Shown here: positions 811 through 61,361 of the stretch, in pieces
Numbering within the stretch: the stretch's first letter is position 1
Layout: the number at the start of each line of letters is the position of its first letter
Source of the DNA: Psammoneis japonica
Taxonomy: Eukaryota
Length of the DNA stretch: 64,000 nt
Direction of reading: 5' to 3'
Assembly (NCBI GenBank): GCA_008632985.1
Contig: QPGO01000013.1
Location: 248,001-312,000, forward strand
The notes under the pieces: generated by a model
The model's database searches: none
Told to the model about the DNA's origin: nothing
The model's input: the letters and a program-made list of their open reading frames with translations, nothing else
Translations under genes and position numbers: made by a program

Positions 811-829
811 TGTCAAGCTTGCTCCTCTT

Positions 830-1185
830 TCCTCTTGGACTTGCGGCTTGATGCTTTGCGATGCAGTTCTCTGTTCTATGCGTTCTTTGTGTTCTGCTTC
901 CTGGCTTGCGCGCAGAAAGTTGACATGCCCGCCTGGCTGTCACATTGTCACAACTGGGCGCCGTTCCAGTTCCCGAGCACCTCAACTTGCTCCCAAATTG
1001 AAGGAAGTCCACAACTCGAGTTGTGGACTTTGACGCAAGCTGGGCTGGAAGTTGCTGTGTTGACAGACCAACAACGTGAAGCTGCTTTTTCATGAACAAG
1101 CAAGGTTGTAGTAAAAAATGCCTCCCAAGAGCCGAGTTCAAACAAAGATCAACGGCTGCTTTTTCTGCTTCACACATGGAGCACG
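830..1185. mobile_element. Old degenerate transposon relic; continues at 8306 after the young copia insertion
   Basis: TA-poor sequence. The CGGGG target-site duplication at 1186-1190 and 8301-8305 shows that these flanks were contiguous before the insertion. Confidence 0.55.
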
Positions 1186-1190
1186 CGGGG

Positions 1191-1466
1191 TGACAGAAAA
1201 TGAAGGCAAATGGCAAGAATTCAAACAACAACTCCTTGCTGCTGTCTAAATGGCAGATGAGTCTCCGCTCAGAGACCGTTGCAGGAGCCGAAAGACGTGC
1301 AAGTCGGCACAATCGGGCTGCTGTCATTGTTCTTGTGAGCCTTGTGGCTCGAAAGCAAACCACATCACGCGTGAACGCGCGGAACTAAAGCACACAAAAC
1401 TGTGCACGGTAAACTAAACAGCGCGCGATGCTTCGCGCGCACCTAAATCCTGTTCAAATCCTGTCA
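1191..1466 (-). repeat. 3' LTR of copia copy 1
   Basis: Direct repeat of 8025-8300 with TGACAG...CTGTCA termini; adjacent to the PPT. Confidence 0.97.
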
Positions 1467-4400
1467 CTCCCCAGTTTGCTTGAGGAGCCACAGAAACAGA
1501 TTCGACTTCGGATGGAATGAAGTTCCAGAACATGAGGGGGCGGAGAAGGTCCCAGATTTGGGAGCAACCCCAATGCTTGCTGAGAATGTCAGCAGGGTTG
1601 CGGGAGCCTTCGATGAAGTGGAACTCAAGGTGGCCAGAGGCAATTGCCTCACGCACACGGTGGAACGACAGTGCGGTGTGTCGCTTGTGTAACTTGGAGT
1701 GCGGGATGGTGGCACTGTCTACAACCGACTTGTTGTCACCGAACATGCAACTGACATTACGGATCGGGACGCCAAGGTGGCGCAGGGTGATGCGCAGGTC
1801 GATAATCTGCTCAACACAAGTCCTTGCGGCAACAAATTCAGACCCGCAGGTCGCAGTCTCCACGGTGGCTTGTTTCTTAGAGAACCAATCAGCCGGGAAT
1901 TTGTTGAGGAAGTGGAGCATTCCCATGACAGAGCGTCCGGTGAGCATGCAATGGCACAAGTTTGCATCGACGTAGTGGGTGGCAGTGACGAACTTGCCAA
2001 GGGGCAGTGGAGCGTCCTTCGGGATCATCTCTTCTGCTTCACCATACACGGAATGCATCCATTCATGGGCCGGAGCAGGGAGATCCGAACAGTCGGGCTC
2101 TTCCGTGCGAACGTGGAGAGCACCGTGTCGCATCTTGGAGAGGCACCCACAGACGCGCTTGGCACGATCCAAGTGGCCTTGACGGGGCGCAGCTCGGAAG
2201 CTAGAGAGTGACATGACGGCTGTGGCAATGTCAATTCGACCAAGGGACACTGCCCATTGGAGTGAACCAACAAGAGACTGGAACTTGTGGGTGCCATCGG
2301 GTCCCAGCAGTTCGGAAGTGTCCAGTTCGGGGTGGTCACCCTTCTCTAGAGGTGACAGGGCGTTGGTGGCAGGTTTCTCCCCAAACAGTCGGGCACAGCT
2401 GTCGACCATGCGCTCGATGTACTTGCGCGGAGACAGGCACAAGGTTCCGTCGGGTTCCCAGGAAAAGTCGCAACCCAGATGGAACTCAATGGGTCCCGCA
2501 CCCTTGAGCTTGAACTTGTGCTTTTCCGTGAGGGTGTCGACGAAAGATTGAGGGTCCTTCATGGCAATGGCGAGGTCATCCACATAAACGGCAATGCATT
2601 CACAGTGGTCGCCGTTCCTGCGCATCCAAATGTCGGGTTCGGCGCGGCAGGGGAAGAAGCCTTCAGCTCGCAGGCAGTCGGCGAAGCGCTCGTGCCAGCG
2701 GAGACCGGAGCTGCGCAGTCCATGCAGTGCCTTGTGGATGACAAGGATGTGTCCTTCGAGTTTGCCGAACTCGGGTCCAGCTGCAATGTAAAGCTTCTCC
2801 TTGGTGGTGGCTTCAAGGCAGGCATTGCCAATGTCGGTGGCCCATGTCTCCAACTCGTTGAGTTCGGCCAGGAAAATCATCAGCCGAAGGCCACGGAGGG
2901 AGACTGCTCCGGAGTGGACACTGTCGACAGGTGCGTCCGTGAGGTGCCCGTCGGCTACGAGTCGTGCCTTGTGGCGACCGTCGTGTTTCACGTCGTGCAC
3001 CAGGTGCACTCGGATCTTCTTGTGTCCCGCAGGAGGAGTGGAAGACTTGAAGGGCCCGCAGTCATGGAAGACTTCGTATTCGTCGAGTTGGTCCATCTCG
3101 AGATTAGTTGCGTCTCCCCACTTGCGGTTGCCGTTGCGTTCGTCTGGTGACATGGCGTGTTTGTAGTTCCGGGGAACTTCGCATCCATGCTTGTAGCGAG
3201 GTGCAGTGCGGAAGGAGCGAAGCTTGGCTTGGTTGGCCATGCGAAATGGCTTCTTTTGGCGCCTCGCGATGGTGCGGAACCGCTTCCAGCCATCCGTGTC
3301 GAGGAGTCCGTTCTCTCGTGCATAGATGGCACAGGTGACGGGGTCGTCCTTGGCGATGATGGCAAGAGGCTCGGACGTGATCTCCCCACTTTCCCATTCA
3401 AGCATGATGTTGTAGCTGGAGCCTTTCCAGGTTGGGTCGTGAGGCTTCAGAGGTCCTTCGTGTGACACGATGCGTCGAAATTTCCAAACAGTGGTGTCTT
3501 CGTCTTCTTGCTCAATGTGATTCATGATGTCATTGCAGGCAAGGACTTCCTCGCATTCGTCATTGTTGACAGAGCAGACGAACTCAGTGAGCTCGGGATT
3601 GCCATTCACTTTCCATTCGTGGTCTTCGACGGCCTTGACGATGCGAGCTCTGTGGCGTTGTCCATCCTCTTGTGGCTGCATGAGGAAGGCACGTCCAATG
3701 ATGTCTTGCGGATCGAAAACTGGCATCTTGGGTGTCCTGATCTCCCCATCAGGAGAGTCGACGGGGTTGTCGTCATGGCGAGATTTGATGATGGGTTCAG
3801 GTGGCTCCCCATCAGGAGGATCAAGACGCAGGTTTCGGACAGCAGGATCGGGGGTAGCGGAGCGGACGTTGGACCGGCAGAGGATCTTCTGATTCTTGTC
3901 AGATAGAATCTTGAAGGTCATCTGGTGGCCGACGTGCTCAGCAATGCCAACGAAGCGTCCACGCAACTCACGGGATTCGGACGGCCAATCGGAGTCATCG
4001 AGGTGGAAGCACACGGGTTCCCACCAGTGAAAGCGAAGCAATGGGCTGATGTCCGGGGTGGAGCCAGTGAGAGTCTCAAGGGGCGTGCGCCAGTGGAGAC
4101 GTGGGGACGCTGCATGGTTGAGCATGAAGCACACGCACATGAGCGCCAGCAGCCATGTGTGGGCGGGCGAACCAAAACGATCCATGACAGTGTTCGCCAT
4201 GCGCTTCACGGTCTGGTGTCGACGCTCGGCAAAGTTTTGGTGTTGCTGGTGAGGCTCACTTTGCCAGCTAGAGATGAAGAGGGCACGTAGGATCCCGAGC
4301 ACTTTGTTGCTGATCTCAACTTGAGCACGGTCGCCAATGAGTGTGGATGGGGCACCACGTTCACGGATCTGATCCTCGAGTGTGTTGACAAACTCTTTGT

Positions 4401-7083
4401 CCGTCTCAGTGCCATGGACGTCAGTGACAGTAGACTCGGTGCCAACAAACAGTTGGGCGCTGGTGCAACCAGAGTCGATGGCCGGGGTGTCGGCACAAAC
4501 GGTGTCAGTGGCGACAGGCTCGTTGCGGCGGTGCACATTAAGGGCGGGGTTGGGTGATTTGCAGGCCTTGCGAAGGTGTGCACCAGCGGGCATGCGGGCA
4601 TGCTGCGTGGTGCAGTCAAAAGTACGACGGACCGTGTCGGCAGGCAGGAAGCCAAAGCAAGGCCGAAGAGACTCGAAGGGGGGGTCCTTGGGCTGCACAG
4701 TGCGCTCCGGAGGTGGAACATCATCGCCCTGGGGGCCAATCGCATGCAGATGACACTCGTAGAACACGTCGTCGTTCGGAATGAGGTGATCATCGAGGGC
4801 GGACGCATGATCGGCAGACAAGGAAGCGGACATGATGGTCTCGTTGACAACGACACGATGACGGCAGTTGCCGCATTCGTCAAATGGGTTGGCAGTGGGG
4901 TCGTCCTGTGGGTCAGAGATCGCGTCGTACCACTGGTCGTCGTCAGTGACAGAGTGATCGAGGACGGAAGGGTCCCATGTGTCATCACCGGTGAGGATGA
5001 CATGGGGCAGGGTGTCCCATTCGGCGTCAGTGCAAGGTCGCATGGCAACACAAGGCAGGCCAGCCTTGATGTCAATGGGGATGACATGGCCATCAGGAGT
5101 GGCAATGCGTTGCAAGCCGTTGGGCACCTTGACAGAGCGATCGTTGACATCCTGTTTGTGCCATTCGAGCTGGCCGCAGGAATGGATGGTCTTGCCCTTG
5201 CCCGTGCATGCGTGCTGATGGAGCATGGCGATGACGGGACCACGCTGGGTCTCAACAACGGCACCAGCGGCGACAATGGGGATGTCCACCAATTGATGAT
5301 CGTCAATGCCCTGAACGTCGACTTGGCGAGAGGTGCGTGCAATGACGTGAACGTCGTCGCCAGCAATGCCGCCGTTGGCCCCACGATCGACCAGAGCGCC
5401 AGTGCGTGTGGAGCGATGAGCAGAAGCAGAGCAAATGACATTGTGGTTGTCAACGCGGCGGCAAGTGCGACCGTCAAGTTCCATGTCATCTGCAGAAGCT
5501 GGCGGGGTAGAGGAAGCAGCGGATGGCCCCGGTCGACTGGCATTGGGGGCTTGGTTAGGAGACAACAGACGCTGCAGATCACCGGGTGGCAGCGGCTTGC
5601 GCTTGGTGAGGTGCGCCAGGATGGGATTGTCCGAAGTGGCGTCCACATGTGGAGCGGAGTCACCAGAGTCAGCAGGAGTCGTGTTGGACAAGTTGACATC
5701 ACCGTCACTCCCAAGGCGTTGGTCATGAAGGTTAGCCGCAACAGACTCATGGCAGTTGCTGGCTCGCGGGTTGCGGGGAGGTGGACGAGAATGCTCAAGG
5801 ATGATCGCCTTGGAGGAATCGGGCAACGAATCCCAGAGCCGTTGGTGGTCGGGAGGGAGACGTCTCCATTGGACACCGGTGAGGCTGGGACCGTGGGTGT
5901 GGGCAGCATTGGCTTGAAGGACGTCAATGTCGCTGTCAATGTCGTAGAACACATCGTCGGATGGTTCCTCGGAGCAGACGTCGTGTGCGCATGTGGCGCG
6001 TCGGGGAGCTCAAGGTGTCGTCTTGGGTTGAAACGTGCTGTCGCACTGAGCTGCGGCGGAGAGGAGCAAGCCACAGTGTTGATCGCATGTGAGGCTCTTG
6101 CCACTCTGCGCATGATGCTGATCAGCTTGGTTCTTGACAGCACGGAGTTCCTCGACAGGGTGCACGGCATTCTCGAGCATGACGCGCTTCTGTCCTTCAG
6201 AGAAGTGGTCACTGGCCGGGATGAGTGCCTCGTGCTTGCGCAACTGATCTTGCCAATGAAGGATGAACCCGTGGGTCGGACCTTTCCAAGTGCCATCACC
6301 AAGACGCGCGGTGGTGAGGTGCGTGAGCAGGGTGGAGGACTCGACAGATGCGCGGGTGGAGGCAAGCGCGTGCTCAGACAAGGAGCGGCAGACGGTCTGT
6401 GCGTCAGAAGACCCCACATTTTCGCGAATGAGAGCCTTGCCCTTGTCGGTGAGAAGGATGCGTTCGAAGATGGCGAACATGTGCTTTTGCTGTTCAGCAA
6501 AGAGCAGTTTGTCTTCGGGGCTGGTCGGTTTGTACGACGAGTCTAGAATGCACTCGACGTCTTGGGCACGGGCTTGTGCCACAAGTGAGGTGTGCCAAGT
6601 GTGCCACTGCTTGTTGGATTTGAGAGCCGTGAAAGCGGTGGGATCACGCTTGATGCCTCGCTTGAAGTCCCGCACCGGGTCGCGTGCCTTGGTCGGGTTG
6701 GTGACATGTGGAGGTGCAAGGGGTGAGCTGCCGATGGACACAGAAGACATGTGGTCGGGGCTGAGGCGGCAGGCAAGGAACTCGTCATGCGTGGACAAAG
6801 AGGAGTCATTGGCAACGTCAAGACCTTTGTGTGCTTTGACAATGTACAGACTGACTGGCGCTGCTGACATGTTCTCATGACCACGGGGCAAAGGGATTGC
6901 ATCAGTGCCGTTGTCGCACTCAAGCGAGTCGATTTGGGACGGCATGAACGCGAACAGTTCCTGGTGCGAGTCCGTGCCGTCTTGGGCCAAAGCCAAACGA
7001 AGAGGACTCCCAGCACCTTGGGCAAGCACGGTTCCAACCACGTGCTCGAAACCATCGGTTTGTTGCTGACGAGTGAGAACCAT
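1414..7083 (-). pseudogene. gag-pol of copia copy 1; one in-frame TGA at 6010-6012 and heavy Tyr->His/Cys substitution
   Basis: ORFs 6010-7113 and 1414-5952 are in the same frame. Copy 2 has CGA where copy 1 has TGA. Motifs read KALHGL, NACLEA and VHDVK instead of KALYGL, NAYLEA and VYDVK. Confidence 0.92.
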
Positions 7084-8009
7084 GGTGGACAAAGGTGGTG
7101 TCAGGACAATCAATTCTGGCTGGGAAGCGAGGGTGGACTCGAAACTTGGGTGAGAATGGACTTGACTTGAAATGGACTTGACTTGAAATCTTGAACTATC
7201 TTAAAATCAGAAGTCGCCGGGCTTTGTTGTCCCGTTCGTTGTTGAGTGCCAAACTTCCCATCCGGTCCGCAGAGTTGTGCCGGCACGTCCGAACCCGCAG
7301 CTGGCGGCGCTTTGGGTTGCTTGCGAGCGGAGCAGCGGGTTGTAAACCCCTGCAGGCAAGCTGACTAGAGGTGGACAAGACCCCCGAACCGTTCTTGTTT
7401 TATGTCGGTTGGATTTCCCGATCAGGCTGGCTGGTTGACGCAGGCGTCAGGTGCTGTGGACGAACGAACAAACGCGGGAAAGCACCCTCGCCCCAACGTA
7501 GGCTGCAATCACGGCTGCCTGCTCTCACAGTCGTCCTCGTGGACCTAGTGGAACTGTAGAGCACCAGCAGTCCGGGGTAGATCAGGTGCAATGGACTCGG
7601 TGTGCTTGTAGAGTGGCAGCAAAACCGCAGTCCAAAGAGTGGATAAAGGTTCTTGGCCGTGAAGATATGCATATATATATACATGTCTTCAGCGACGAAG
7701 ATCCTTGAATATGTAGGGTTCTTGACCGTTAACCGAGGAACAGGTATATCAAGGGATGTTGATCAAGGATAGACTTGGATATGACCGTTGAATATAAGTC
7801 TTCAGCGATCAAAGGTAGTATAATCAATCCAGATATCCAGCGGTAAGGAGACTTGACGGTGACGTTAACTTCCTGCCGATGCCCTGGTATTGAATGCGCG
7901 TAGACTTGCCGATGTATGTAGAATATATACGGAGGTCCACGTAGAATTGAAATAGCGTCGTTGGTAAATCAACGACGACGATGGCGGTTGCTCAATGGGT
8001 TGACAATGA

Positions 8010-8024
8010 GCAAGACTGTTAATC
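8010..8024 (-). promoter_or_regulatory. Putative primer-binding site of copia copy 1, complementary to a tRNA-Asn anticodon arm
   Basis: gcaagactgttaatc on the + strand abuts the 5' LTR and contains the GUU anticodon loop CTGTTAA. The same sequence occurs in copy 2. Confidence 0.55.
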
Positions 8025-8300
8025 TGACAGAAAATGAAGGCAAATGGCAAGAATTCAAACAATAACTCCTTACTGCTGTCTAAATAGCAGATGAGTCTCC
8101 GCTCAGAGACCGTCACAGGAGCTGAAAGACGTGTAAGTCGGTATAATCGGGCTGCTGTTATTATTCTTGTGAGCCTTGTGGCTCGAAAGCAAACTACATC
8201 GCGCGTGAACGCGCGGAACTAAAGCACACAAAACTGTGCACGGTAAACTAAACAGCGCGCGATGCTTCGCGCGCACCTAAATCCTGTTCAAATCCTGTCA
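8025..8300 (-). repeat. 5' LTR of copia copy 1
   Basis: Direct repeat of 1191-1466; retains most of its TA sites. Confidence 0.97.
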
Positions 8301-8305
8301 CGGGG

Positions 8306-11300
8306 GGTGCTGACGTGCAAGTCTTCTTCCATTTGGCATTGCACCACCCGGCCAGATGTGGCATTTGAGCTTTTGGTCCACAGCCCACAACACAGTGCTG
8401 TTCTGCTGTGGCATTGCTGCAGCTTTCGCTTGCACCTGTGCTTCTTTTGCTCATCTGCTTCAGCTTCAAAAATGGGTGCCACAGCTTTGAGAGAGTCAGT
8501 TTTGAGGCAGATGACATGTTCTTTGTGCTGCCTCTCCTGCATCTTTCATTGCCGTGGCTTTGCTCTGCAGGTGTGCAACACATGGAAACATCAATGCTGG
8601 TGGCTGCACATGTCAGATGCACGTTTGGGCCAATGCAGCTGAGCATCAATCACGACCTTGCCCCTCTCATCTCTCAGTGGCTGCATGCAGCTGATCTGGC
8701 ATGCACAGTTTTCCAGGTTTTGTTTGCCCAGCAGGCATGCTTCTTGGTCCAGGGCACAAAGTTGCGTGCTTCTGTGTGCTGACTCCTTGGCTTTGCATTT
8801 TTCCTGGCTTGAACAATCACAGAAAGTGATGCTCCTGATGAGTGCCTTGCAGAATGGCAGCTGTCTTGTGTTGTCACAAGTGGGTGGCTCAAGTTCCCAA
8901 GCACTCCACATCCACTTGACCCCAACTTGAAGGGTCCCAATGTGGAGGAGTGAAAAAGAGGAGGATTGAGGAAGTTGTGCACATGAGTGCTCTGCATCAG
9001 TGGTGTGCACCAAATGTGTGCACTGCAGCCAGACTGTTTTGGCAGATGATGGGTCCGACCTCTTTTTAGATGGCCCAGTGGGTCTCGCTGAGATCTGCCT
9101 CTTCTCTCACTCTTTCTTGCCAGTGTGTGCATTGTTGCTGTTGCCAGCTTGCAGGGAGTTCTGTGTTGATTGCTGACTGGGCTCCTGTTGCCGCTCTTGG
9201 CAGGTTGTGGCCTTGTGTTGTGTTGCACTCTTCCACATTGTGAACCCCATCTTGGCTCACCTTGTTTGCAATCCAATCAAGTGTGACTCAAGTTCATGAC
9301 TCTGCAACAAGTGTTTTTTTTTCTTAAAGCCGCGGCATTTTTTGGACTGCACAACAATGCCAGTCTTCTGTGCACTCAGGAACAACTTCTTGGTGCCCTT
9401 GTTTCAACCAAGGTCATGTTTTGGAAAGACCCTTCTGTTCCTTGACGAGCCACAAAGTTCCTTGTCAGCCTCTGCAGTGGAGAGATGTTTGATCTGGGAT
9501 CTTTTGAGGATGAGAAGCACACACAATCAAAACATTGTGTTTGTGAGCTCTTCTCTGAACACATCCTTCACAACCTTGTCATGTGGAGAAGATGATGTGA
9601 GAGGAGCCCCCCACTGTTGGAAAAACTTGGCTTGCCAGAACAACAGAAAGTTGCAGCTCTTACCAACAAACAACAAACAGGAGACAAACTCAGCCACTGG
9701 AATGCCAAATTGATCTGCCACTTGTGTTGTTGGGGTTGTCAGCAGATTGCCATCCCTTTTGGTTGGTCTGGCACAGCTTTTCCCAGCTGGAAACAAAAAA
9801 ACAGGCTTTTGCAAATGCCAGAGCTTGGAAGATTGCTCAGAGCTTGCTGGTGCATTTGATGACATTGAGGGTGAGAAGGATTTTTCACTGACAAAGATGA
9901 AACATGTGCTGTCTGGTGTGTTCCTCAGGGCTCTGCTGGTTGATGGACTTGGTGACAATCCTTTTGCTGACTGATGCTGGCAGTCATCACAGCTGCACAG
10001 ACCAGATGTGTGACATTGCTCTGCTGTCAAGAAACAACTCTGGGAACAGCTCTGCATTCCCCAACATTGTGGCAATGGTGTGGGGATGGTCACCAACAAA
10101 AATGCTTCACAGTTCAGTGCCTCACCTTTGAGACCAAGAAAGGCTGAGCCAAATGAAGAGGCCAGGACATTGTTGTGGATGCCAAGGAACAACCCAATGA
10201 CAGCAGACAGGACTTGTGTGGTGAGTGCATTTTTGGTGTTTGAGAGTGACGACACTTCTCTTGAACATGCCGTTGCACTCTCATGCCTGCATCCAGAAGG
10301 CAGCAACTGCTGGCTGTTGGGCAAAAAGGTTCCTCAAATGTGCCGCTCCCCAGTGGGTTGCTTTCTCCTCCTGCTGCAACCAGCAGCACTGCTGAGAAGA
10401 GACGTCATCTTGCCAACAGGTCCGCCACTTTTTTGCACAAGAATGAGGGCCATTTTCAGCTGCATCTCACCACATCTCATGGTTTCTCACCAAACCTCCT
10501 CCTGATAAAATCTGACTTGTGGTTTCATGCAGTTTTGGGTCCATCAAGGAGATGGTTTCACCAAATTTGGGCTTTCACCCTCCATCTGGAATGATCATCC
10601 TGGTCATCTGCATTCCTTGCCACTTCAATTGTTGCAAACATGAAGCCATCCCATTCCTGTGCCCTCATTTGCCAGAAGTCAAATGTGGCCACAATGACAC
10701 TGGACAACATCCAACAAGACACATTGAGCTCAAAAAATTGACTTGATGCATGGTGCACACAAAGATTCCACTCAGGAGTCTCTGTTCAAATCCAAGTCAC
10801 GGTTCACATGTTTTGGACTTCTTGTCCCTCTCATCCATGGGAGTGACGAGCATGCTTGGTCTTGCCTTTCAAGACATCTGTTGGCCAAGAACCCCAAATG
10901 GCCACCATCATGTCCATGTCTCCACCATCATGTCCATGTCTTTGGGTGAGATGGACAAGTTCATCACCTGGTTTGAATGCAAAAATTGCTTGAAACCCAA
11001 CACACTGGGAATTCCAGCCTTGCAGAAGAACAGTCTGAGTGCTTGCTCAGTGCTTGCAAACCTCCCTCTTGGTGAAGCCTGTGGAACTGTGTTCCGCCAT
11101 TGGTGGGGCCACAGTTCCAGATGTGTGCTCCTCCTCTGTGCTTTTGTCTCTCTTCTTCTTCTTTGACAGCATGCTCACATGCAACTTGCTTTCTTGGAGT
11201 TCTTTGGCATGGTCAAAGAATTTCTGGCTGACACAAAAGCACACAGTCTGATGTCATTGACTCTGAACACCATGACTTTTTTGCCAGTTTTCTCATCTGG

Positions 11301-13880: not shown

Positions 13881-13889
13881 AGGACCGCA

Positions 13890-14440
13890 TGCCAGCGGCC
13901 AGACTCTGCTGCAATCACCAGTCATGATGAGAGGCTGTGAACTGCAATGTGCAGAGTTGTGAGGCAGCTCTGGGCCCTTGTCTTATTCTGGATCATTGTG
14001 TGATGGCTGACTGAGGTGTGGAGTCAAAACATGGACCCAGCCAGTGGCCAGACTCTGCTGCAATCACCAGTCATGATGAGAGGCTGTGGGATGCAATGTG
14101 TGGAGTTGAGAGATTGACAGCTGACTGAGGTGTGGAGTCAAAACACAGACCGAGCCAGTGGCCAGACTCTGCTGCAATCACCAGTCATGATGAGAGGCTG
14201 CAGACTGCAATGATCTGTGTGAAGTTGAGAGGAGGAACTGAGCCCTTGTAAACACTGGATCATTGTGTGATGGCTGACTGAGGTGTGGAGTCAAAACATG
14301 GACAGCCAGTGGCCAGACTCTGCTGCAATCACCAGTCATGATGAGAGGCTGTGGACTGCCATGTGTGGAGTTGAGAGGGAGCTTTGGGCCCTTGTGTCAT
14401 GCTGGATCATTGTGTGATGGCTGACTGAGGCATGGAGTCA
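13890..14440. repeat. Tandem repeat, 4 copies of a ~115-150 bp unit
   Basis: Core gccag(t/c)ggccagactctgctgcaatcaccagtcatgatgagaggctg at ~13891, ~14040, ~14154 and ~14305. Confidence 0.9.
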
Positions 14441-43200: not shown

Positions 43201-44092
43201 CGGAACTTGTTCAGGCACGTGTGGAGATGTGGCATTGTTGCATGTGCTTAGAACTCACAACAGATCTCTGCAACAGTTTGCTTGGTGAAAACATTTTTGG
43301 TCATGCACACGCAGAAACCTGGTGTGTTTCTATGACCATGAAAAATGCTGGGAAAGCAAGAAAAAAATTTGTTTCAGGAACAAAGATGAGGCTTGCTCAA
43401 TCAGCTCACAAAACAGTTGAATCAAAACAGAAAGCATGGCACAGAGTTCTGTGGCACAGTGCAAGGCCATGGCCTGACAGAATGCCAAAGGTCAACAATG
43501 ACAGAGGCATGAAAGACTCCCTGAGCACCAGGACTGTGATGACATGAGCACCAGCAGAAAGAAGTGAGAAGAGATCAGAGAGATCTGGTCGTCCATCTAG
43601 AAGGTCTGTCCATCATCAATGCACAGTCTGTCTGTCACAGAATGGGTGGACTGACAATTTCACGAACTTCATCAAGCAAATGACAAGTTTTCAATGGCGA
43701 CAAGCCCTCTTCCGACTGCATGTCACCAAGAAATTCTTTGTGGTGCACAGCAAGATGTGACTTTTTCACAGCGACATTCATTTTGACACAAAGTGCGGTC
43801 CACTCTGATGCAGTCAATGGACTCATCAACTCCTTGCCCATGTCGGTCCTGTGAAAGTGCAAAAAGAGGCAATCACAATGATCACATTGTTTTCATTCTT
43901 CCTCGTGAAGCACTGGCAACTCTTGCAATGAATCCACAAACACCTCACAATTGTCATCATCTGGAATGACTGAGTGAAGCATCTTGTGCATTGATGCTCC
44001 CAGCAGACGCTCTGCAAATGATGCTGAGAGCATTTGCACTCTCATCAAATGTGACAGTTTTGTCATCTTTCTCAACAGCAAGCCTGTCAGGA

Positions 44093-45025
44093 TGGAGCTT
44101 GAGGTCTTCGTTGACTTCTTGGACCCAAGCAGTGATTTCCCTGATCTTCATGCTCTCTGGTGTCTTGACATCATGCCCGCAAACAATGCTTCTGAATCTG
44201 AAGTGCATTCTTTGGGGAGACATGTCTTGCAAGGCACTGTTGTCATTCATTTGAAGGCTCCTTTGCTTGCTTCATCTTCAACATTCACAGCACCATTCTT
44301 GAATGCACACAGAGTGTCTCCCTGCAACAACACACACATGAGACGGAACTCATCCGCTTGCTTCTTCTTGATGTTCTGACCCACCAAGAGTTGATCACAG
44401 TTCTTTAAGAATTCAGTGCACTTGGGAATGCCATGCTTCTTGTGATGCTCAACATTGATGGTGCAAGTGTGGCCATCTTTCTTTTCTGGGTAAAAGCACT
44501 GCTCCATCTTGAGGCGTTGGCTTGGTTTGAGTGTCTTTGGCTCAGAAATTGATTCCAGCGGTTGTTGAACAATTTTCTCTAACTGCCCAAAGGAAGACTT
44601 GGTGTGAGTGACATGAGGTGCAAGCTTCATGTTCATCTTGTCACCTTCTGTGGTGTGTGGACCATGCACTGTGCTTGAAGAAAAGTGCAAACAAAAGCAG
44701 AGTGAAGTGCAAAAAATGAAAATTGTGAGATTAGATTTTTCTCAATCATGATTTTGGGTTTCTCCGAACAAGTTCTCAATGGCCTGAGGCTTCTGTGCTG
44801 TTTCTGCAGACCAAAGGCCTTTCAAAGAATCTGATCATGACAACAGGTTGTCTGGATGTGATTGCCATTGACACATGAGATGTCATCATCGTCGAGCGAT
44901 TGCATTTGCAATTTTCAACATCTGATCAATTCTGTGTGACAGATCTGTCCTTCACATGAACCCACGATTGATGTGATTGAAATGCAACGACATTAAAATG
45001 TGTGTGTGTAGATGTAAAATGTGCA
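44093..45025 (-). mobile_element. Gypsy 5' LTR (~44665-45025) plus 5' part of gag; probably the displaced 5' end of gypsy A
   Basis: The LTR segment matches 26868-27230 and 56714-57060; the gag part matches ~56140-56713. Confidence 0.75.
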
Positions 45026-48000: not shown

Positions 48001-48162
48001 ATCAAGTCACATCCCATGATCACACCACAATGACTTGAAGAAGAAGGAGCATTGTCAACACATGCCATTGTTTCTGTCATCTCATGCCTGTCAAATTCAG
48101 GCAAAGAGAACTGTGTTCTTGCACAGTGACTGTCAGGCATGAAGAGTCCACCCTTGGTTTCC

Positions 48163-48438
48163 TGACAGGATTTGAACAGGATTTAGGTGCGCGCGAAGTA
48201 TCGCGCGCTGTTTAGTTTACCGTGCACAGTTTTGTGTGCTTTAGTTCCGCGCGTTCACGCGCGATGTAGTTTGCTTTCGAGCCACAAGGCTCACAAGAAT
48301 AATAACAGTAGCCCGATTATACCGACTTACACGTCTTTCGGCTCCTGTAACGGTCTCTGAGCGGAGACTCATCTGCTATTTAGACAGCAGTAAGGAGTTA
48401 TTGTTTGAATTCTTGCCATTTGCCTTCATTTTCTGTCA
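48163..48438 (+). repeat. 5' LTR of copia copy 2 (the least mutated of the four LTRs)
   Basis: Direct repeat of 55000-55276. Confidence 0.97.
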
Positions 48439-49381
48439 GATTAACAGTCTTGCTCATTGTCAACCCATTGAGCAACCGCCATCGTCGTCGTTGATTTACC
48501 AACGACGCTATTTCAATTCTACGTGGACCTCCGTATATATTCTACATACATCGGCAAGTCTACGCGCATTCAATACCAGGGCATCGGCAGGAAGTTAACG
48601 TCACTCTCAAGTCTCCTTACCGCTGGATATCTGGATTGATTATACTACCTTTGATCGCTGAAAACTTATATTCAACGGTCATATCCAAGTCTATCCTTGA
48701 TCAACATCCCTTGATATACCTGTTCCTCGGTTAACGGTCAAGAACCCTACATATTCAAGGATCTTAGTCGCTGAAGACATGTGTATATATACACACATGT
48801 CTTCACGACCAAGAACCTTTATCCACTCTTCGGACTGCGGTTTTGCTGCCACTCTACAAGCACACCGAGTCCATTGCACCTGATCTACCCCGGACTACTG
48901 GTGCTCTGCAGTTCCACCAGGTCCACGAGGACGACTGTGAGAGCAGGCAGCCGTGATTGCAGCCTGCGTTGGGGCAAGGGTGTTTTCCCGCGTTTGTTCG
49001 TTCGTCCACAGCGCCTGACGCCTGCGTCAACTGGCCAGCCTGATCGGGAAATCCAACCGACATAAAATGAGAACGGTTCGGGGGTCTTGTCCACCTCTGG
49101 TCAGCTTGCCTGCAGGGGTTTACAACCCGCTACTCCGCTCGCAAGCAACCCAAAGCGCCGCTGGCTGCGGGTTCGGACATGCCGGCACAACTCTGCGGAC
49201 CGGATGGGAAGTTTAGCACTTGACAACGAACGGGACAACAAAGCCCGGCGACTTCTGATTTTAAGACAGTTCAAGATTTCAAGTCAAGTCCATTTCAAGT
49301 CAAGTCCATTCTCACCCAAGTTTCGAGTCTGCCTTCGCTTCCCAACCAGAATTGATCATCCTGACACCACTTTTGTCCACC

Positions 49382-52300
49382 ATGGTTCTCACTCGTCAGC
49401 AACAAACCGATGGTTTCGAGCACATGGTTGGAACCGTGCTTGCCCAAGGTGCTGGGAGTCCTCTTCATTTGGCTTTGGCCCAAGACGGCACGGACTCGTG
49501 TCAGGAACTGTTCACGTTCATGCCGTCCCAAATCGACTCGCTTGAGTGCGACAACGGCACTGGTGCAATCCCTTTGCCCCGTGGTTACAAGAACATGTTA
49601 GCAGCACCAGTCAGTCTGTACATTGTCAAAGCACACAAAGGTCTTGACGTTGCCAACGACTCCTCTTTGTTCACGCATGACGAGTTCCTTGCCTGCCGCC
49701 TCAGCCCCGACTGCATGTCTTCTGTGTCCATCGGCAGCTCACCCCTTGCACCTCCACATGTCAACAACCCAACCAAGGCACACGACCCGGTGCGGGACTT
49801 CAAGCGAGGCATCAAGCGTGATCCCACCGCTTTCACGGCTCTCAAATCCGACAAGCAGTGGCACACTTGGCACACCTCACTTGTGGCACAAGCCCGTGCC
49901 CAAGACGTCGAGTGCATTCTAGACTCGTCGTACAAACCGACCAGCCCCGAAGACAAACTGCTCTTTGCTGAACAGCAAAAGTGCATGTTCGCCGTCTTCG
50001 AACGCATCCTTCTCACCGACAAGGGCAAGGCTCTCATTCGCGAAAATGTGGGGTCTTCTGATGCACAGACCGTCTGCCGCTCCTTGTCTGAGTGCGCGCT
50101 TGCCTCCACCCGCGCATCTGTCGAGTCCTCCACCCTGCTCACGTGCCTCACCACCGCGCGTCTTGGTGATGGCACTTGGAAAGGTCCGACCCACGGGTTC
50201 ATCCTTCATTGGCAAGATCAGTTGCACAAGCACGAGGCACTCATCCCGGCCAGTGACCACTTCTCTGAAGGACAGAAGCGCGTCATGCTCGAGAATGCCG
50301 TGCACCCTGTCGAGGAACTCCGTGCTGTCAAGAACCAAGCTGATCAGCATCGTACGCAGAGTGGCAAGAGCCTCACACACGATCAATGCTGTGGCTTGCT
50401 CCTCTCCGCGGCAGCTCAGTGCGACAGCACGTTTCAACCCAAGACGACACCTCGAGCTCCCCGACGCACCACACACGCACACGACGTCTGCTCCGAGGAA
50501 CCGTCCGATGATGTGTTCTACGACATTGACAGCGACGTTGACGTCCTTCAAGCCAATGCTGCCTGCACCCGCGGTCCCAGCCTCGCCGGTGTCCAATGGA
50601 GACGTCTCCATCCCGACCACCAACGGCTCTGGGATTCGTTGCCCGATTCCTCCAAGGCGATCATCCTTGAGCATTCTCGTCCACCTCCCCGCAACCCGCG
50701 AGCCAGTGACTGCCATGAGTCTGTCACGGCCAACCTTCACGACCAACGCCTTGGGAGTGACGGTGATGTCAACTTGTCCAACACGACTCCTGCTGACTCT
50801 GGTGACTCCGCTCCACATGTGGACGCCACTTTGGATAATCCCATCCTGGCGCACCTCACCAAGCGCAAGCCACTGCCACCCGGTGATCTGCAACGTCTGT
50901 TGTCTCCTCACCAAGCCCCCAATGCCAGTCGACCGGGGCCATCCGCCGCTTCCTCTACCCCGCCAGCTTCTGCAGATGACACAGAACTTAACGGCCGCAC
51001 TTGCCGCCGCGTTGACAACCACAATGTCATTTGCTCTGCCTCTGCTCATCGCTCCACACGCACTGGCGCTCTAGTCGATCGTGGGGCCAACGGCGGCATT
51101 GCTGGCGACGACGTTCGCGTCATTGCATGCACCTCTCGCCAAGTCGACGTTCAGGGCATTGACGATCATCAATTGGTGGACATCCCCATTGTCACCGCTG
51201 GTGCCGTCATTGAGACCCAGCGTGGTCCCGTCATCGCCATCCTCCATCAGTGCGCATGCACGGGCAAGGGCAAGACCATCCATTCCTGCGGCCAGCTCAA
51301 ATGGTGCAAACAGGATGTCAACGATCGCTCTGTCAAGGTGCCCAACGGCTTGCAACGTATTGCCACTCCTGATGGCTATGTCATCCCCATTGACATCAAG
51401 GCTGGCCTGCCTTGTGTTGCCATGCGACCTTGCACTGACGCCGAATGGGACACCCTGCCCCATGTCATCCTCACCGGTGATGACACATGGGACCCTTCCG
51501 TCCTCGATCACTCTGTCACTGACGACGACCAGTGGTGCGACGCGATCTCTGACCTACAGGACGATCCCACTGCCAACCTATTTGACGAACACGGCAACTG
51601 CCGTCATCGTGTCGTTGTCAACGAGACCATCATGTCCGCTTCCTTGTCTGCCGATCACGCGTCCGCCCTCAATGATCACCTCATTCCGAACGACGACGTG
51701 TTCTACGAGTGTCATCTGCATGCGATTGGCCCCCAGGGCGATGACGTTCCGCCCCCAGAGCGCACTGTGCAGCCCAAGGACCCCCCCTTCGAGTCTCTTC
51801 GGCCTCACTTTGGCTTCCTGCCTGCCGACACGGTCCGTCACACTTTTGACTGCACCACGCAGTGCGCCCACATGCCCGCCAAGTGCACACCTTCGCAAGG
51901 CCTGCAAGTCACCCAACCCCGCCCTTAATGTGCACCGCCGCAACGAGCCTGTCGCCACTGACACCGTTTGTGCCGACACCCCGGCCGTCGACTCTGGTTG
52001 CACCAGCGCCCAACTGTTTGTTGGCACCGAGTCTACCGTCACTGACGTCTACGGCACTAAGACGGACAAAGAGTTTGTCAACACACTCGAGGATCAGATC
52101 CATGAACGTGGTGCCCCATCCAAACTCATTAGCGACCGTGCTCAAGTTGAGATCAGCAACAAAGTGCTCGGGATCCTACGCGCCCTCTTCATCTCTAGCT
52201 GGCAAAGTGAGCCTCACCAGCAACACCAAAACTTTGCCGAGCATCGATGCCAGACCGTGAAGCGCATGGCGAACACTGTCATGGATCGTTTTGGTTCGCC

Positions 52301-55052
52301 CGCCCACACATGGCTGCTGGCGCTCATGTACGTGTGCTTCATGCTCAACCATGCAGCGTCCCCACGTCTCCACTGGCGCACGCCCCTCGAGACTCTCACT
52401 GGCTCCACCCCGGACATCAGCCCATTGCTTCGCTTTCACTGGTGGGAACCCGTGTACTTCCACCTCGATGACTCCGATTGGCCGTCCGAATCCCGTGAGT
52501 TGCGTGGACGCTTCGTTGGCATTGCTGAGCACGTCGGCCACCAGATGACCTTCAAGATTCTATCTGACGAGACTCAGAAGATCCTCTGCCGGTCCAACGT
52601 CCGCTCCGCTACCCCCGATCCTGCCGTTCGAAACCTGCGTCTTGATCCTCCTGATGGGGAGCCACCTGAACCCATCATCAAATCTCGCCATGACGACAAC
52701 CCCGTCGACTCTCCTGATGGGGAGATCAGGACACCCAAGATGCCAGTTTTCGATCCGCAAGACATCATTGGACGTACCTTCCTCATGCAGCCACAAGAGG
52801 ACGGACAACGCCACAGAGCTCGCATCGTCAAGGCCGTCGAAGACCACGAATGGAAAGTGAACGGCAATCCCGAGCTCACTAAGTTCGTCTGCTCTGTCAA
52901 CAATGACGAATACGAGGAAGTCCTTGCCTGCAATGACATCATGAATCACATTGAGCAAGAAGACGAAGACACCACTGTTTGGAAATTTCGACGCATCGTG
53001 TCACACGAAGGACCTCTGAAGCCTCACGACCCAACCTGGAAAGGCTCCAGCTACAACATCATGCTTGAATGGGAAAGTGGGGAGATCACGTCCGAGCCTC
53101 TTGCCATCATCGCCAAGGACGACCCCGTCACCTGTGCCATCTATGCACGAGAGAACGGACTCCTCGACACGGATGGCTGGAAGCGGTTCCGCACCATCGC
53201 GAGGCGCCAAAAGAAGCCATTTCGCATGGCCAACCAAGCCAAGCTTCGCTCCTTCCGCACTGCACCTCGCTACAAGCATGGATGCGAAGTTCCCCGGAAC
53301 TGCAAACACGCCATGTCACTAGACGAACGCAACGGCAACCGCAAGTGGGGAGACGCAACTAATCTCGAGATGGACCAACTCGACGAATACGAAGTCTTCC
53401 ATGACTGCGGGCCCTTCAAGTCTTCCACTCCTCCTGCGGGACACAAGAAGATCTGAGTGCACCTGGTGTGCGACGTGAAACACGACGGTCGCCACAAGGC
53501 ACGACTCGCAGCCGACGGGCACCTCACGGACGTACCTGTCGACAGTGTCTACTCCGGAGTAGTCTCCCTCCGTGGCCTTCGGCTGATGATTTTCCTGGCC
53601 GAACTCAACGAGTTGGAGACATGGGCCACCGACATTGGCAATGCCACCTTGAAGCCACCACCAAGGAGAAGCTTTACATTGTAGCTGGACCCGAGTTCGG
53701 CAAACTCGAAGGACACATCCTTGTCATCCACAAGGCACTGTGTGGACTGCGCAGCTCCGGTCTCCGCTGGCACGAGCGCTTCGCCGACTGCCTGCGAGCT
53801 GAAGGCTTCTTCCCCTGCCGCGCCGAACCCGACATTTGGATGCGCAGGAACGGCGACCACTGTGAATGCATTGCCGTTTATGTGGATGACCTCGCCATTG
53901 CCATGAAGGACCCTCAATCTTTCGTCGACACTCTCACGGAAAAGCACAAGTTCAAGCTCAAGGGTGCGGGACCCATTGAGTTCCATCTGGGTTGCGACTT
54001 TTCCCGGGAACCCGACGGAACCTTGTGCCTGTCTCCGCGCAAGTACATCGAGCGCATGGTCGACAGCTGTGCCCGACTGTTTGGGGAGAAACCTGCCACC
54101 AACGCCCTGTCACCTCTAGAGAAGGGTGACCACCCCGAACTGGACACTTCCGAACTGCTGGGACCCGATGGCATTCACAAGTTCCAGTCTCTTGTTGGTT
54201 CACTCCAATGGGCAGTGTCCCTTGGTCGAATTGACATTACCACGGCCGTCATGTCACTCTCTAGCTTCCGAGCTGCGCCCCGTCAAGGCCACTTGGATCG
54301 TGCCAAACGCGTCTGTGGGTGCCTCTCCAAGATGCGACACGGTGCTCTCCGCGTTCGCACGGAAGAGCCCGACCATTCGGATCTCCCTGCTCCGGCCCCA
54401 TGAATGGATGCATTCCGTGCATGGTGAAGCAGAAGAGATGATCCCAAAGGACGCTCCACCGCCCCTTGGCAAGTTCGTCACTGCCACCCACTACGTCGAT
54501 GCAAACTTGCACCATTGCATGCTCACCGGACGCTCTGTCATGGGAATGCTCCACTTCCTCAACAAATTCCCGGCTGATTGGTTCTCTAAGAAACAAGCCA
54601 CCGTGGAGACTGCGACCTGCGGGTCTGAATTTGTTGCCGCAAGGACTTGTGTTGAGCAGATTGTCGACCTGCGCATCACCCTGCGCTGCCTTGGCGTCCC
54701 GATCCGTAACGTCAGTTACATGTTCGGTGACAACAAGTCGGTTGTAGACAGTGCCACCATCCCGCACTCCAAGTTACACAAGCGACACACCGCACCATCG
54801 TTCCACCGTGTGCGTGAGGCAATTGCCTCTGGTTGCCTTGAGTTCCACTTCATCGAAGGCTCCCGCAACCCTGCTGACATTCTCAGCAAGCATTGGGGTC
54901 ACTCCCAAATCTGGGACCTTCTCCGCCCCCTCATGTTCTGGAACTTCATTCCATCCGAAGTCGAATCTGTTTCTGTGGCTCCTCAAGCAAACTGGGGAGT
55001 GACAGGATTTGAACAGGATTTGGGTGCGCGCGAAGCATCGCGCGCTGTTTAG
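49382..55052 (+). pseudogene. gag-pol of copia copy 2; frameshifts at ~51880, ~53645 and ~54399, and TGA at 53454-53456
   Basis: Four ORF pieces colinear with the copy 1 polyprotein. The terminal TAG lies inside the 3' LTR. Confidence 0.92.
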
Positions 55053-55276
55053 TTTGCCGTGCACAGTTTTGTGTGCTTCAGTTCCGCACGTTCACGCGCG
55101 ATGTAGTTTGCTTTTTGAGCCACAAGGCTCACAAGAATAATGACAGTAGCCCGATTGTACCGACTTACACGTCTTTCGGCTCCTGCAACGGTCTCTGAGC
55201 GGAGACTCATCTGCCATTTAGACAGCAGCAAGGAGTTGTTGTTTGAATTCTTGCCATTTGCCTTCATTTTCTGTCA
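55000..55276 (+). repeat. 3' LTR of copia copy 2
   Basis: Direct repeat of 48163-48438 with 12 substitutions and 1 indel. Confidence 0.97.
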
Positions 55277-57635
55277 TTTCCCAAGTTTTGGTGGTGGATT
55301 TCTTCATTCTCATTTTCTGAGTGAATTTGCACAAAATTGTGGTTGACAATGTTCCACTGTCAAGGACAGCATGCAGAGGCTTCTTCTTTGCTTCACCCAA
55401 GCAGGCATTCATGCAAGCGATGACTGCCAGACTGGCGCAAATTGCTTTGGCCCTTTTTCTGGGCTTCCTGACATGTCCAGCGGCGTGTGAGACTCCTCGA
55501 GCAGTGCCAGTCATTCTTCAGAATTGCCGCACATCATTTTTTTAAATTGACAATTCTCCTTCTTGCTGATGGCAACAGAGTTGCATTCTTTGCTCTTGCA
55601 CTTTGTGTTGTTGTTCAAAGATCTTGCCTTGAGTGGTGCTTTTTGAATTGCCTGGACCACCATGGCATTGAACTCTTCTTTGCGAGCGGCATTTCCATTG
55701 TTGTGACATGACCGTGTGCAATTGCCATTTGAATGACACATTTTTGGATCACGTTTGCAGCTTTCATGGCACTCTTTTGCCAGTTGTTTAATGGCCCAGC
55801 ATTTGTCTGCATTGCGATTGGATTTCTTGCAATGATTGCACCGCTTGTCAGACTCACATCATTTGGCACCAGATTGGCAACCATCATTGGAACCAGGGCT
55901 GGATCCATCCTTGTCTTTTGATCCAGGTTTGTTGCTGGCATCAGCCTTGACATGGACAGCATCAAAGATGTCCTCAGAAACCTCCAGACACTCTAAAAAC
56001 TTGACCAACTCATCGAAGGCATGTTTCAAAATCTAGAAACCTTGAGCTGTCGACTGGTGCAGCCATTTGCAAGGTGCAAGATTGCAGAGGATGTCCTTGA
56101 GCTTGTCCTCCTCAATCTTCTAACCTTCCTCAAAGGGAGGACAAAGCTTGAGGTCTTCTTTGTCTTCTTGTGGCCAAGCAGCGATTTTTTGAATCTTCAT
56201 GCTCTTCGGCTTTTGAGATCATGCCACAAACAACGCCCCTGAATCTGAAGTGCGTTCTTTGGGAAAACATGCCTGGTGAGGCACTGTTGACACTTTTCAA
56301 AGGCTCCTTTGCTCTCTTCATCTTCTACATTTGCAGCCCCATTCTCAAAAGCACACAGAGCATCTCTCCCTGAAGAAGTGACACACGCACAAGACAGAAC
56401 TCACCCGATTTCTTCTTGACGTTCTGACCCGCCAAGAGTTGCTCGCAGTTCTTTGAGAACATGATGCACTTGCAAATGCCTTGCTTCTTGCAATGCTCAA
56501 CATTGATGGCACAAGTGTGACTGTCCTTCTTTCCTGGGTGAAAACACTGCTCCATTTTGAGGTGTTGGCTCGGTTTGAGTGTCTTTGGCTTGAAAATTGA
56601 TTCCAGTGGTTGTGGCGCACAATTTTTTCCTGCTTGAAGGAAGACTTGGCATCAGCAACATGAGATGAGAGCTTTATTTTCATCTTGACACCTTCTGTGG
56701 TGTGCACACACAATGCACTGTGCTTGAAGAATGAGTGCAAACGAGCGCAGAACAAAGTGCGAAAAGTGAAAATTGTGAGAGAGGTCAGATTTTGCTCAAT
56801 CATTTTTGGGTTTCTCCAAATGAGTTCTCAATGGCCCAAAGCTTTTGCACCAGTCCTGCAGACTAAAAGGCCTTTTGGAGAACATCTTCGTGACAGCATG
56901 TTGTCCGGATGCGTTTGCCGTTGACACACAGGATGTCAACATCGTCAAGCGATCGCATTTGCAATTTCCGACATCCGATCAATTCTGTGTGACTGATCTG
57001 TCCTTCGTGCGAACCCACGATTGGCGTGCAATTGAAACAGAACAACATTTTAAAAAGTGTGTCAATCGAACCCCACCCATCCAGACCATTTGCCTGCCGA
57101 CAGTCCACAGAGATCACTGATGCAACGCCTGGAAAGACAACAAAAACCCATCATCACACTGAACATGGTGCCAGATTCAGTTCAAAATTCACACGCACTG
57201 CCCACGAAATTGTGCGCGTCAACCACCCCTTGCTCGCACGACTGCACCAACTGCACAACATCCATTTCCCACAACGTGCATGTAAAATGCACTCCTGCAT
57301 GACAGCGCATGTTGCACTGGCCGCATTCTTTGGTGCACTTCCTCCATGCACAGCACCACTACCACATGAAGGATTGTTCACAGCTGCAGCAGGTGGATGC
57401 TTCGATCTCTCTCCAACAGACAGCAGTTGCCCGTCGCCATGCTGTCTGCACTCTCCACCGACTCCTCACTGTCGCCGTGTTGTTTCAGTCAAGTAGAAGT
57501 TAGTAGCCGTACAGCACATGCCAGACATGACGTCACCAGCAATTCCGGCCATAAGTAAGTTCAGAAAGCCGACACAAGGTGTGTCACCCGCAGAGCACGA
57601 AGAAGAACGCAACTTCTCGTTTCTCGTACAACAAC

Positions 57636-61360: not shown

Positions 61361-61361
61361 T

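Follow-up and report, generated by a model that had tools for sequence, protein, structure and literature searches.

Long domains of repeat DNA in a 64,000-nucleotide stretch of the genome of Psammoneis japonica, apparently a diatom-type stramenopile (contig QPGO01000013.1, positions 248,001–312,000; the window), have lost nearly all of their TpA dinucleotides and are rich in CpA and TpG. It is highly probable that this pattern reflects a real mutational process, one that is targeted to certain regions of the chromosome, acts on repeat DNA after its integration, changes TpA to TpG or CpA on either strand, and has come close to saturation, on top of a slower decay of CpG. Much of the evidence comes from two copies of a Copia retrotransposon and from a copy of a sirtuin-type gene within the window.

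Composition of the depleted domains

When counted in 1-kb windows, the ratio of observed to expected TA dinucleotides (o/e) is 0.00–0.16 at approximately 8.3–15, 23–33, 36–48 and 55.3–57 kb, where CA and TG are at 1.6–2.2, while the 1-kb windows of the gene islands have TA o/e of 0.44–0.71. The depleted DNA forms four domains, referred to below as the old domains. Domain A (8302–16100, or 8302–14772 up to the sirtuin-type copy) has 29 TA versus 505 expected, and from 8501 to 14750 there are only 0–3 TA and 0–4 CG per 250 bp. Domain B (22581–33470) has 48 TA versus 767 expected and 126 CG versus 598, domain C (35561–48162) has 49 TA versus 878 and 174 CG versus 702, and domain D (55277–57490) has 11 TA versus 154 and 59 CG versus 121. 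Pooled (33.5 kb), the old domains contain 137 TA where 2305 are expected from base composition (o/e 0.06) and 460 CG where 1892 are expected (o/e 0.24), with CA at 1.82 and TG at 1.77. The dinucleotide AT remains at 0.85–0.97 in the same domains.

Three gene islands were used as controls: 16101–22580 (TA o/e 0.51, CG 1.02), 33471–35560 (TA 0.60, CG 0.95) and 57491–64000 (TA 0.60, CG 0.95), with CA and TG at about 1.17. The islands are unaffected, and the edges of the domains are sharp, falling within 250–500 bp, or one or two 250-bp windows. The number of TA per 250 bp drops from 9 to 3 to 0 at 22.25–22.75 kb, and at the right edge of domain B it rises from 3 to 11 at 33.25–33.5 kb.

With the composition of the gene islands taken as the starting state, the old domains have lost 1163 TA and 1387 CG and have gained 1288 CA and 1326 TG, so that a total loss of 2550 TA and CG stands beside a total gain of 2614 CA and TG. 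About half of the CA/TG excess stems from ordinary CpG decay. The TpA and CpG processes cancel in their effect on base composition, and the GC content of the old domains therefore stays at 0.47–0.49.

A prediction made earlier from the letters of the window (the original prediction) had described a near-absence of TA and a saturation in TG and CA, confined to repeat domains and leaving genes with ordinary composition. The pooled counts, the ratios in the islands and the sharp edges agree with this, but two parts had to be narrowed. The ranges given as depleted hold for the old domains but not fully for the two Copia copies included in them, where depletion is only partial, and the saturation in CA and TG, of which TA loss explains a part, owes about half to a CpG loss to which the prediction had attributed none of it.

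Two Copia copies and the direction of change

Copia copy 1 (1191–8301, minus strand) has its 3’ long terminal repeat (LTR) at 1191–1467, its 5’ LTR at 8025–8301 and the target-site duplication CCCCG, and its reverse transcriptase domain was recognized with an E value of 2.6e-25 (RVT_2). Copy 2 (48163–55276, plus strand) has its 5’ LTR at 48163–48438, its 3’ LTR at about 55000–55276 and the target-site duplication TTTCC. Both copies of this 7.1-kb element have 277-bp LTRs (TG...CA) and the RVT_2 domain, and in a self-comparison they are 96.85% identical over 7115 bp. Because their perfect 5-bp target-site duplications differ, the two copies are independent insertions; copy 2 has landed in a TA-free repeat that is older than itself. 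Both elements belong to an intermediate class: their TA o/e is 0.28 and 0.33 and their CG o/e 0.92 and 0.94 (in copy 1, 97 TA versus 342 expected and 502 CG versus 549). Since this younger class has lost most of its TA with its CpG nearly intact, TpA disappears far more quickly than CpG.

A HMMER search found 47,805 relatives of the Copia polyprotein, the closest named one being from the diatom Fistulifera solaris (56% identity). The outgroup set consisted of 23 of the best 150, which cover most of the query. The polyprotein of copy 1 has 0.8% tyrosine (Tyr), 5.2% His and 2.9% Cys, compared with 2.8–5.3% Tyr in 23 of the 23 homologs. Tyr is the residue of at least 60% of the outgroups in 17 columns; there copy 1 shows Tyr 6 times, Cys 5 times, His 3 times, Phe twice and Ile once, and the His and Cys codons are all CAY or TGY (Y, pyrimidine). 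Of the 178 columns with other conserved residues, 150 are unchanged (Fisher p = 3e-5 against Tyr), including 8/8 for His, 21/22 for Arg, 8/9 for Trp and 33/36 for Gly. Position 1096 is Tyr in all 23 outgroups, CAT in copy 1 and TGT in copy 2, and its ancestor was therefore TAT, not CGT.

The outgroups allowed 17 codons that differ between the two copies, with 18 nucleotide changes, to be polarized. Ten changes are TA to CA or TG, four are CG to CA or TG, one is a weakly supported TG to TA, one is a transversion, and two fall in a discordant CTG/CCA codon at a Leu position. Among the changes of A to G or T to C, 10 of 11 are at TpA, and the eleventh is in that discordant codon.

A second line of evidence is the copy of a sirtuin-type host gene at 14773–16137 (minus strand), on the border of domain A, for which 885 homologs were found at E ≤ 0.001. 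The best are 48–49% identical. The best named relative is from the diatom Seminavis (43%), followed closely by relatives from dinoflagellates, a green alga and a pelagophyte; the named matches also include the diatoms Cylindrotheca and Ditylum. Like the Copia copies, it is TA-poor with normal CG. No Tyr remains among its 455 amino acids, compared with a mean of 3.0% in 40 homologs, and the 8 columns of conserved Tyr have become Cys (6), His (1) and Phe (1). The retention of 0/8 conserved Tyr compares with 149/173 for other conserved residues (p = 4e-7), and the conserved start Met is a GTG, preceded by T. The copy is probably a pseudogene.

Judged by these two sets of homologs, the ancestral state is TA and the changes are TA to TG and TA to CA, the direction that the original prediction had given: Tyr (TAY) in the outgroups corresponds to His or Cys (CAY or TGY) in the window. 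CA/TG or CG ancestry, which had been named beforehand as the contrary outcome, was not found, as the outgroups show TA ancestry. The removal of TpA in both proteins likewise upholds the statement that the polarity is opposite to that of fungal repeat-induced point mutation (RIP).

Spectrum, strands and sequence context

The two Copia copies differ by 218 substitutions, 209 of which are transitions and 184 of which exchange one pyrimidine-purine dinucleotide (YpR) for another. By class, there are 28 TA/TG, 25 TA/CA, 36 CG/CA, 25 CG/TG, 35 CA/TG and 0 CG/TA differences. In a control duplicate outside the domains (a kinase fragment, 1–815 versus 57637–58452), 58 of 108 substitutions are transitions and 31 of 108 are YpR exchanges. 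Three pairs of old TA-free repeats have 75–80% transitions and 25–33 discordant CA/TG sites each.

TG and CA products are equally frequent, and both strands must therefore have been hit, as the original prediction had proposed. The near-equality is found in the TA/TG and TA/CA classes of the Copia copies, in the polarized TA changes (4 against 6 by product) and in the gains of CA and TG in the old domains. The 35 discordant CA/TG sites between the Copia copies compare with about 5 predicted by a uniform-rate model (our own arithmetic), an excess that suggests near-saturation of part of the element. The signature of CpG decay to TpG and CpA is also present, in the low CG o/e of the old domains relative to the genes, in the four polarized CG changes, and in the 61 sites of the CG-to-TG/CA class between the young Copia copies.

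Most of the TA dinucleotides that remain in the old domains, 111 of 137, are in TAA or TTA. The share of these two contexts is 35% in genes, and it would be about 48% among TA freshly produced from CA or TG. The contexts most fully removed are ATAT (0 left), ATAC (1 left) and GTAC (3 left). Among the differences between the Copia copies, the 3’ neighbors are C in 26, G in 14, A in 7 and T in 6, and the 5’ neighbors are C in 19, T in 12, A in 11 and G in 11, counts that are not normalized. A simple flanking-base rule, at which the LTRs had hinted (TTA to TTG), disagrees with these copy differences and with the surviving TAA and TTA; it was dropped, and only the ranking by survival is kept.

Sparing of the 5’ end of the Copia copies

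In both Copia copies the 5’ LTR and about 0.5 kb of leader (approximately 7500–8301 in copy 1 and 48163 to about 49000 in copy 2) have 14–23 TA per 250 bp, compared with 0–4 in the body, or 0–7 when the 3’ LTR is counted with it. All substitutions between the LTRs are within YpR dinucleotides (TpA or CpG). With TA taken as ancestral, our reading of an alignment of the four LTRs gave 10 and 9 TA losses in the 3’ LTRs and 1 and 0 in the 5’ LTRs (binomial p = 4e-5).

The two LTRs of a retrotransposon are identical when it integrates. A difference of 19 versus 1 losses therefore means that the process acted on integrated DNA, and that it depends on position rather than on sequence. As all of the LTR changes are in YpR, the 4.7% LTR divergence within one element reflects hypermutation, not age.

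What the old domains are

Only one of the 86 open reading frames (ORFs) of at least 110 amino acids in the old domains contains a retroelement Pfam domain. This sole recognizable remnant is an SH3_retrovirus match (E = 1.9e-9) at 39098–39484 (minus strand) in domain C. No Copia remnants were found in the old domains by tblastn with 9 outgroup proteins or with a profile of the 23 outgroups on the six-frame translation, which returned only the two young copies. The weak matches to BRCT_3, DUF441, C1_1 and Ank_2, below the Pfam cut-off, were set aside; SIR2 alone was confirmed, by the search for sirtuin homologs. The assignment of the depleted domains to transposons in the original prediction is thus well founded for the two Copia copies and thinly documented for the old domains.

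The old domains do hold dispersed and tandem repeats, 69–97% identical. Tandem repeats are at 13852–14440 in domain A (units of about 114–150 bp, also given as about 100–150 bp) and at 23807–25314 and 29429–30336 in domain B (units of 380–405 and 443–466 bp, the duplications of about 400 and 450 bp of that domain). The units of these three arrays differ from each other mostly as CA-versus-TG alternatives. The region 30599–32544 in domain B is homologous to, and colinear with, the flanks of Copia copy 2 at 47035–48161 and 55277–56112.

The absence of TA means that there are no TAA or TAG codons, leaving TGA as the only stop. Long open frames are common in the TA-free DNA, up to the 1531 codons at 1414–6009 (minus strand) in Copia copy 1, with others throughout 8.3–57.5 kb, and the ORFs of TA-free DNA encode 0–0.4% Tyr. 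The stop codons that are present come by other routes, such as CGA to TGA in Copia copy 2.

Sequencing runs and metagenomes

Of the words sampled from 8302–18300, 85% are present in one sequencing run, X1; two further runs of the same sample, X2 and X3, were added. Contigs from X1 match the TA-free regions 10441–11179, 12006–12549 and 12827–13266 (739, 544 and 439 nt) with 0 differences, at word depths of about 30–60. The X1 contigs over 8672–16008 have two word depths, about 30–37 and about 60–65, some with small indels, and these may be two diverged alleles of the repeat domain. X3 yielded only Copia-like contigs.

Run X2 looks RNA-derived, because its contigs are spliced with GT–AG introns; a spliced contig in the island 16101–22580 has introns of about 80–100 bp. 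X2 has no contig on 8.7–14.7 kb or on the Copia body, which in an RNA-like run says nothing about silencing. One X2 contig covers the sirtuin-type copy (14765–16164) with 60 differences, at least 40 of which have C or G in the window and T or A in the contig. Over all X2 contigs, this combination is found at 48 sites and the reverse at 11. By this comparison, an expressed relative (95.7% similar) keeps the T and A that the sirtuin-type copy has lost.

Metagenomic relatives of the Copia element were compared using the best 80 of 536 confirmed loci, and 79 of the 80 have TA o/e of 0.33–1.02. Three of the loci (L012, L041 and L039) are partly depleted, at 0.33–0.43. The remaining locus, L079, has 61% protein identity to the Copia of the window and contains 3 TA in 2766 bp (TA o/e 0.02, CG o/e 0.44). 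It keeps Tyr at 1 of the 35 positions where its closest outgroup has Tyr, with His at 12, Cys at 7 and Phe at 9, while three loci that share its accession prefix have TA o/e of 0.58–0.70. Coming from an unrelated metagenome assembly, L079 independently supports the view that the pattern is not an artefact.

Alternative explanations

The alternative that survives best is that the process is real but is induced by repetition, with duplication as its trigger, as in RIP, rather than chromatin or foreignness. This would fit the sirtuin-type copy, which has the expressed relative described above, and the Copia family, which is highly repeated (summed word depth of 70,000–120,000 compared with about 63, a sum that is not a copy number). 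However, the two LTRs are equally repeated and yet the 5’ one is spared, and the kinase duplicate at 1–815 is unaffected at 86.6% identity, which speaks against duplication as the trigger. In addition, most of domain A is at word depths of about 32–72, near the value of about 63 in unique flanking sequence, and the hypermutated virus region of Bigelowiella natans, in which a preprint describes a similar process (Mettrop et al., bioRxiv 10.64898/2026.01.13.699255), is reported there to be single-copy. We consider a repeat-induced process improbable.

Editing before integration, in which an ADAR- or APOBEC-like enzyme would act on the RNA or single-stranded cDNA of a retrotransposon and reverse transcription would fix the changes, is very unlikely. 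It predicts changes in one direction, whereas the sense strand shows both equally, and it does not account for LTRs that were alike at integration and now differ in their TA losses by 1 versus 19. The best-documented targets are LTR retrotransposons, but the sirtuin-type gene copy and sequences that do not resemble retroelements were hit as well. The low level of change near the primer-binding side recalls the gradients of retroviral cDNA editing. ADAR does favor a 5’ U, according to the Discussion of the preprint; the same source describes the B. natans mutations as arising in DNA that was already integrated (10.64898/2026.01.13.699255).

That there is no special mutator at all is hardly credible. 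The repeats would have been TA-poor from the start, through codon usage or through selection against TA-rich signals or TA-targeting insertions, and CpG decay alone would have produced the excess of CA and TG. CpG is indeed strongly depleted in the old domains, and TA is low even in genes, at 0.51–0.60. But the CpG loss of 1387 covers only about half of the CA and TG gain of 2614, and the young Copia and sirtuin-type copies are depleted in TA with CpG still at about 0.9. Relatives of the element are not TA-poor to begin with, as seen in 79 of the 80 metagenomic loci and in the Tyr content of all 23 homologs, and conserved Tyr has become His or Cys and a conserved ATG start has become GTG.

The least probable of the four is an artefact in which base calling takes a modified base at TpA in silent chromatin, such as 5-hydroxymethyluracil or an altered adenine, for G or C: although the pattern is limited to domains that are probably chemically modified, and the platforms of the assembly and of run X1 are not on record, the X1 contigs repeat 739, 544 and 439 nt exactly, down to whether a given site is CA or TG, where misreads of the two strands would be expected to conflict rather than give a clean and reproducible choice, the copies differ by fixed CA-versus-TG states, and the unrelated metagenome assembly has a TA-free Copia relative beside normal ones.

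Several observations weigh against a real, region-targeted process at TpA acting after integration. One polarized codon runs from TG to TA (outgroup support 0.30 versus 0.09), one LTR site runs the opposite way, with CA in three copies and TA in one, and 3 of the 17 conserved-Tyr positions in Copia and 1 of the 8 in the sirtuin-type copy have Phe or Ile, which are not products of TpA transitions. Six TA losses with the same product are common to both 3’ LTRs; these may reflect gene conversion between the inverted copies, or an outcome determined by context. The old domains can be identified only weakly as transposons by their ORFs and by the Copia searches. The match to X1 is supportive, but not fully independent, as the single sample behind this run, whose platform is not on record, may also be the one that was assembled. 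The process may be extinct in this organism, where the changes are read from standing sequence and no de novo event has been observed. The chemistry, the chromatin guidance and the role in defence set out below are proposals, with no candidate enzyme encoded in the window.

Proposed mechanism

A TpA process of this kind would turn A:T into G:C at TpA, a dinucleotide that is its own complement, in either strand and after integration, on top of a slower decay of CpG to TpG and CpA of the ordinary methylation type. It may be targeted by a silent chromatin state that also carries CpG methylation, and it would be excluded from promoter-proximal chromatin, as suggested by the sparing of the first ~0.8 kb of Copia, its 5’ LTR and leader, a length similar to that of active chromatin near promoters. 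An adenine chemistry and a thymine chemistry cannot be told apart from sequence, as TpA reads the same on both strands. If the process is real, deamination of adenine to inosine in the T-A context by a TadA- or ADAT2-like enzyme falls a little short of an even chance, and oxidation or other modification of the TpA thymine to a base that pairs with G is distinctly less likely. The Pfam matches of the proteins of the 64-kb window include no deaminase domain, in line with the statement in the original prediction that the window encodes no candidate enzyme.

Genes would be inactivated as missense changes put His or Cys in place of Tyr, as ATG starts that follow a T disappear, and as TA-rich signals are ruined. 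Under the genetic code, a change of TpA to TpG or CpA never makes a stop codon but does abolish TAA and TAG. This is why dead elements keep long open frames, such as the 1531 codons of Copia copy 1 despite its lost Tyr.

Neighboring genes

By Pfam, the island at 16101–22580 encodes ubiquitin-like genes and an SPX-MFS transporter, and the island at 57491–64000 encodes a hybrid histidine kinase (58273–60390) and a protein with a cold-shock domain and an RNA-recognition motif (62590–63135, plus strand). All relatives of the SPX-MFS transporter that carry a name come from diatoms (Thalassiosira, Cyclotella, Fistulifera, Amphora, Rhizosolenia and Proboscia), while in a protein atlas the kinase matched bacterial-type clusters only. 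Near-identical proteins were absent from a collection of 5.8 billion, where the best matches were 52–55%. Scans of the whole window with Rfam and for tRNA genes gave 0 matches each.

A HisKA fragment at 1–939 (minus strand) is an inverted duplicate of the start of the kinase gene at 57555–60390 (plus strand), with 86.6% identity over 816 bp. Each kinase copy has a Copia of the same family upstream, with its 3’ LTR towards the kinase and with differing target duplications. The flank from the kinase fragment to Copia copy 1 (820–1190) is TA-poor, with 7 TA in the 250-bp windows at 751–1250 compared with 8–12 per 250 bp at 1–750. A short dispersed inverted repeat (16208–16411 and 63631–63855, 82% identical) has an X1 depth of about 7,900, compared with about 63 in its flanks; it may be a miniature mobile element that sits at gene-island edges.

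Comparison with known systems

The original prediction held that no named eukaryotic pathway produces this pattern. That statement does not stand, as the preprint on B. natans shows the same signature de novo: TpA to TpG and CpA hypermutation of integrated viruses. In 15 mutation-accumulation lines of B. natans, 231 of 302 nuclear single-nucleotide mutations were in integrated giant-virus and virophage regions; all but one of the mutations in these regions were A to G or T to C, all on TpA, and the rate in integrated viral DNA was about 6e-7 per site per generation (10.64898/2026.01.13.699255). The preprint also describes 124 clusters in the B. natans genome that are depleted in TpA, enriched in CpA and TpG, and enriched in reverse-transcriptase and DDE domains, and its authors propose an ADAT2-like deaminase. 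Beyond this preprint, no report of the same signature was found in the literature, in diatoms or elsewhere, including by look-ups of terms in diatom transposon papers (PMC2806351, 10.1101/2025.10.24.684338).

To the extent that the preprint describes it, the B. natans process resembles the one proposed here in that TpA alone is targeted, the products are TpG or CpA by strand, the changes enrich GC, and they are confined to regions of DNA unlike that of the host. There are also differences. The host here looks like a diatom-type stramenopile, not a chlorarachniophyte, and its clearest targets are LTR retrotransposons and a copy of a host gene. Depletion is near-total over tens of kb (o/e 0.06), compared with a Rho of 0.45 in the virus region described in the preprint. 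CpG decay runs alongside here, the 5’ end of the Copia (LTR and leader) escapes, and TAA and TTA survive; the main text of the preprint does not mention CpG and is silent on flanking bases and on diatoms. De novo events were seen in B. natans, whereas here the process is read from standing sequence.

It is possible, though on balance unlikely, that a TpA mutator is common to diatom-type stramenopiles and the rhizarian B. natans as an old defence of the SAR (stramenopile, alveolate and rhizarian) lineage. Under this hypothesis, a natural DNA adenine deaminase would be brought to silent, methylated chromatin but kept away from promoter-proximal chromatin, and would be the main eroder of transposons and of an occasional gene copy, leaving their frames open. 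If the process is the same as that in B. natans, a putative defence opposite to RIP would reach a second and ecologically weighty lineage, where it would hit transposons at saturation. Any mechanism is constrained by the strict preference for TpA on both strands, the sharp edges, the spared 5’ LTR and leader, and the resistance of TAA and TTA. There are practical consequences as well: in this genome, ages of LTR elements estimated from the divergence of their LTRs would be far too high, dead elements with kilobase-long open frames may be misannotated as genes, and homology searches fail on old hypermutated copies. A natural enzyme that converts A:T to G:C on duplex chromosomal DNA would be of interest for base-editing research.

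RIP in ascomycetes is similar in that it makes regional, near-saturating, dinucleotide-specific transitions in repeated or mobile DNA, ruining coding sequences and quickly diverging the copies. It differs in that RIP changes C to T mostly at CpA, creating TpA, lowering GC and making stop codons, while here TpA is destroyed, GC rises with each event, stops are impossible, and duplication is probably not what sets the process off. Deamination of 5-methylcytosine would explain why the old domains have lost CpG, and about half of their gain in CA and TG, but it cannot remove TpA or turn TAY into CAY or TGY.

Editing by ADAR and APOBEC enzymes shares the A to G outcome, a preference for a 5’ T or U, and a deaminase-type chemistry, as noted in the Discussion of the preprint. 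These enzymes and the TadA editors act on RNA or single-stranded DNA, on one strand, whereas here both strands of integrated DNA were changed equally and LTRs diverged after integration. TadA-derived adenine base editors have a preference for a 5’ T. A process of this kind is thus known from one preprint, as far as that source describes it, and from one species; the window adds a different major lineage, a much more extreme depletion, and new anatomical details.

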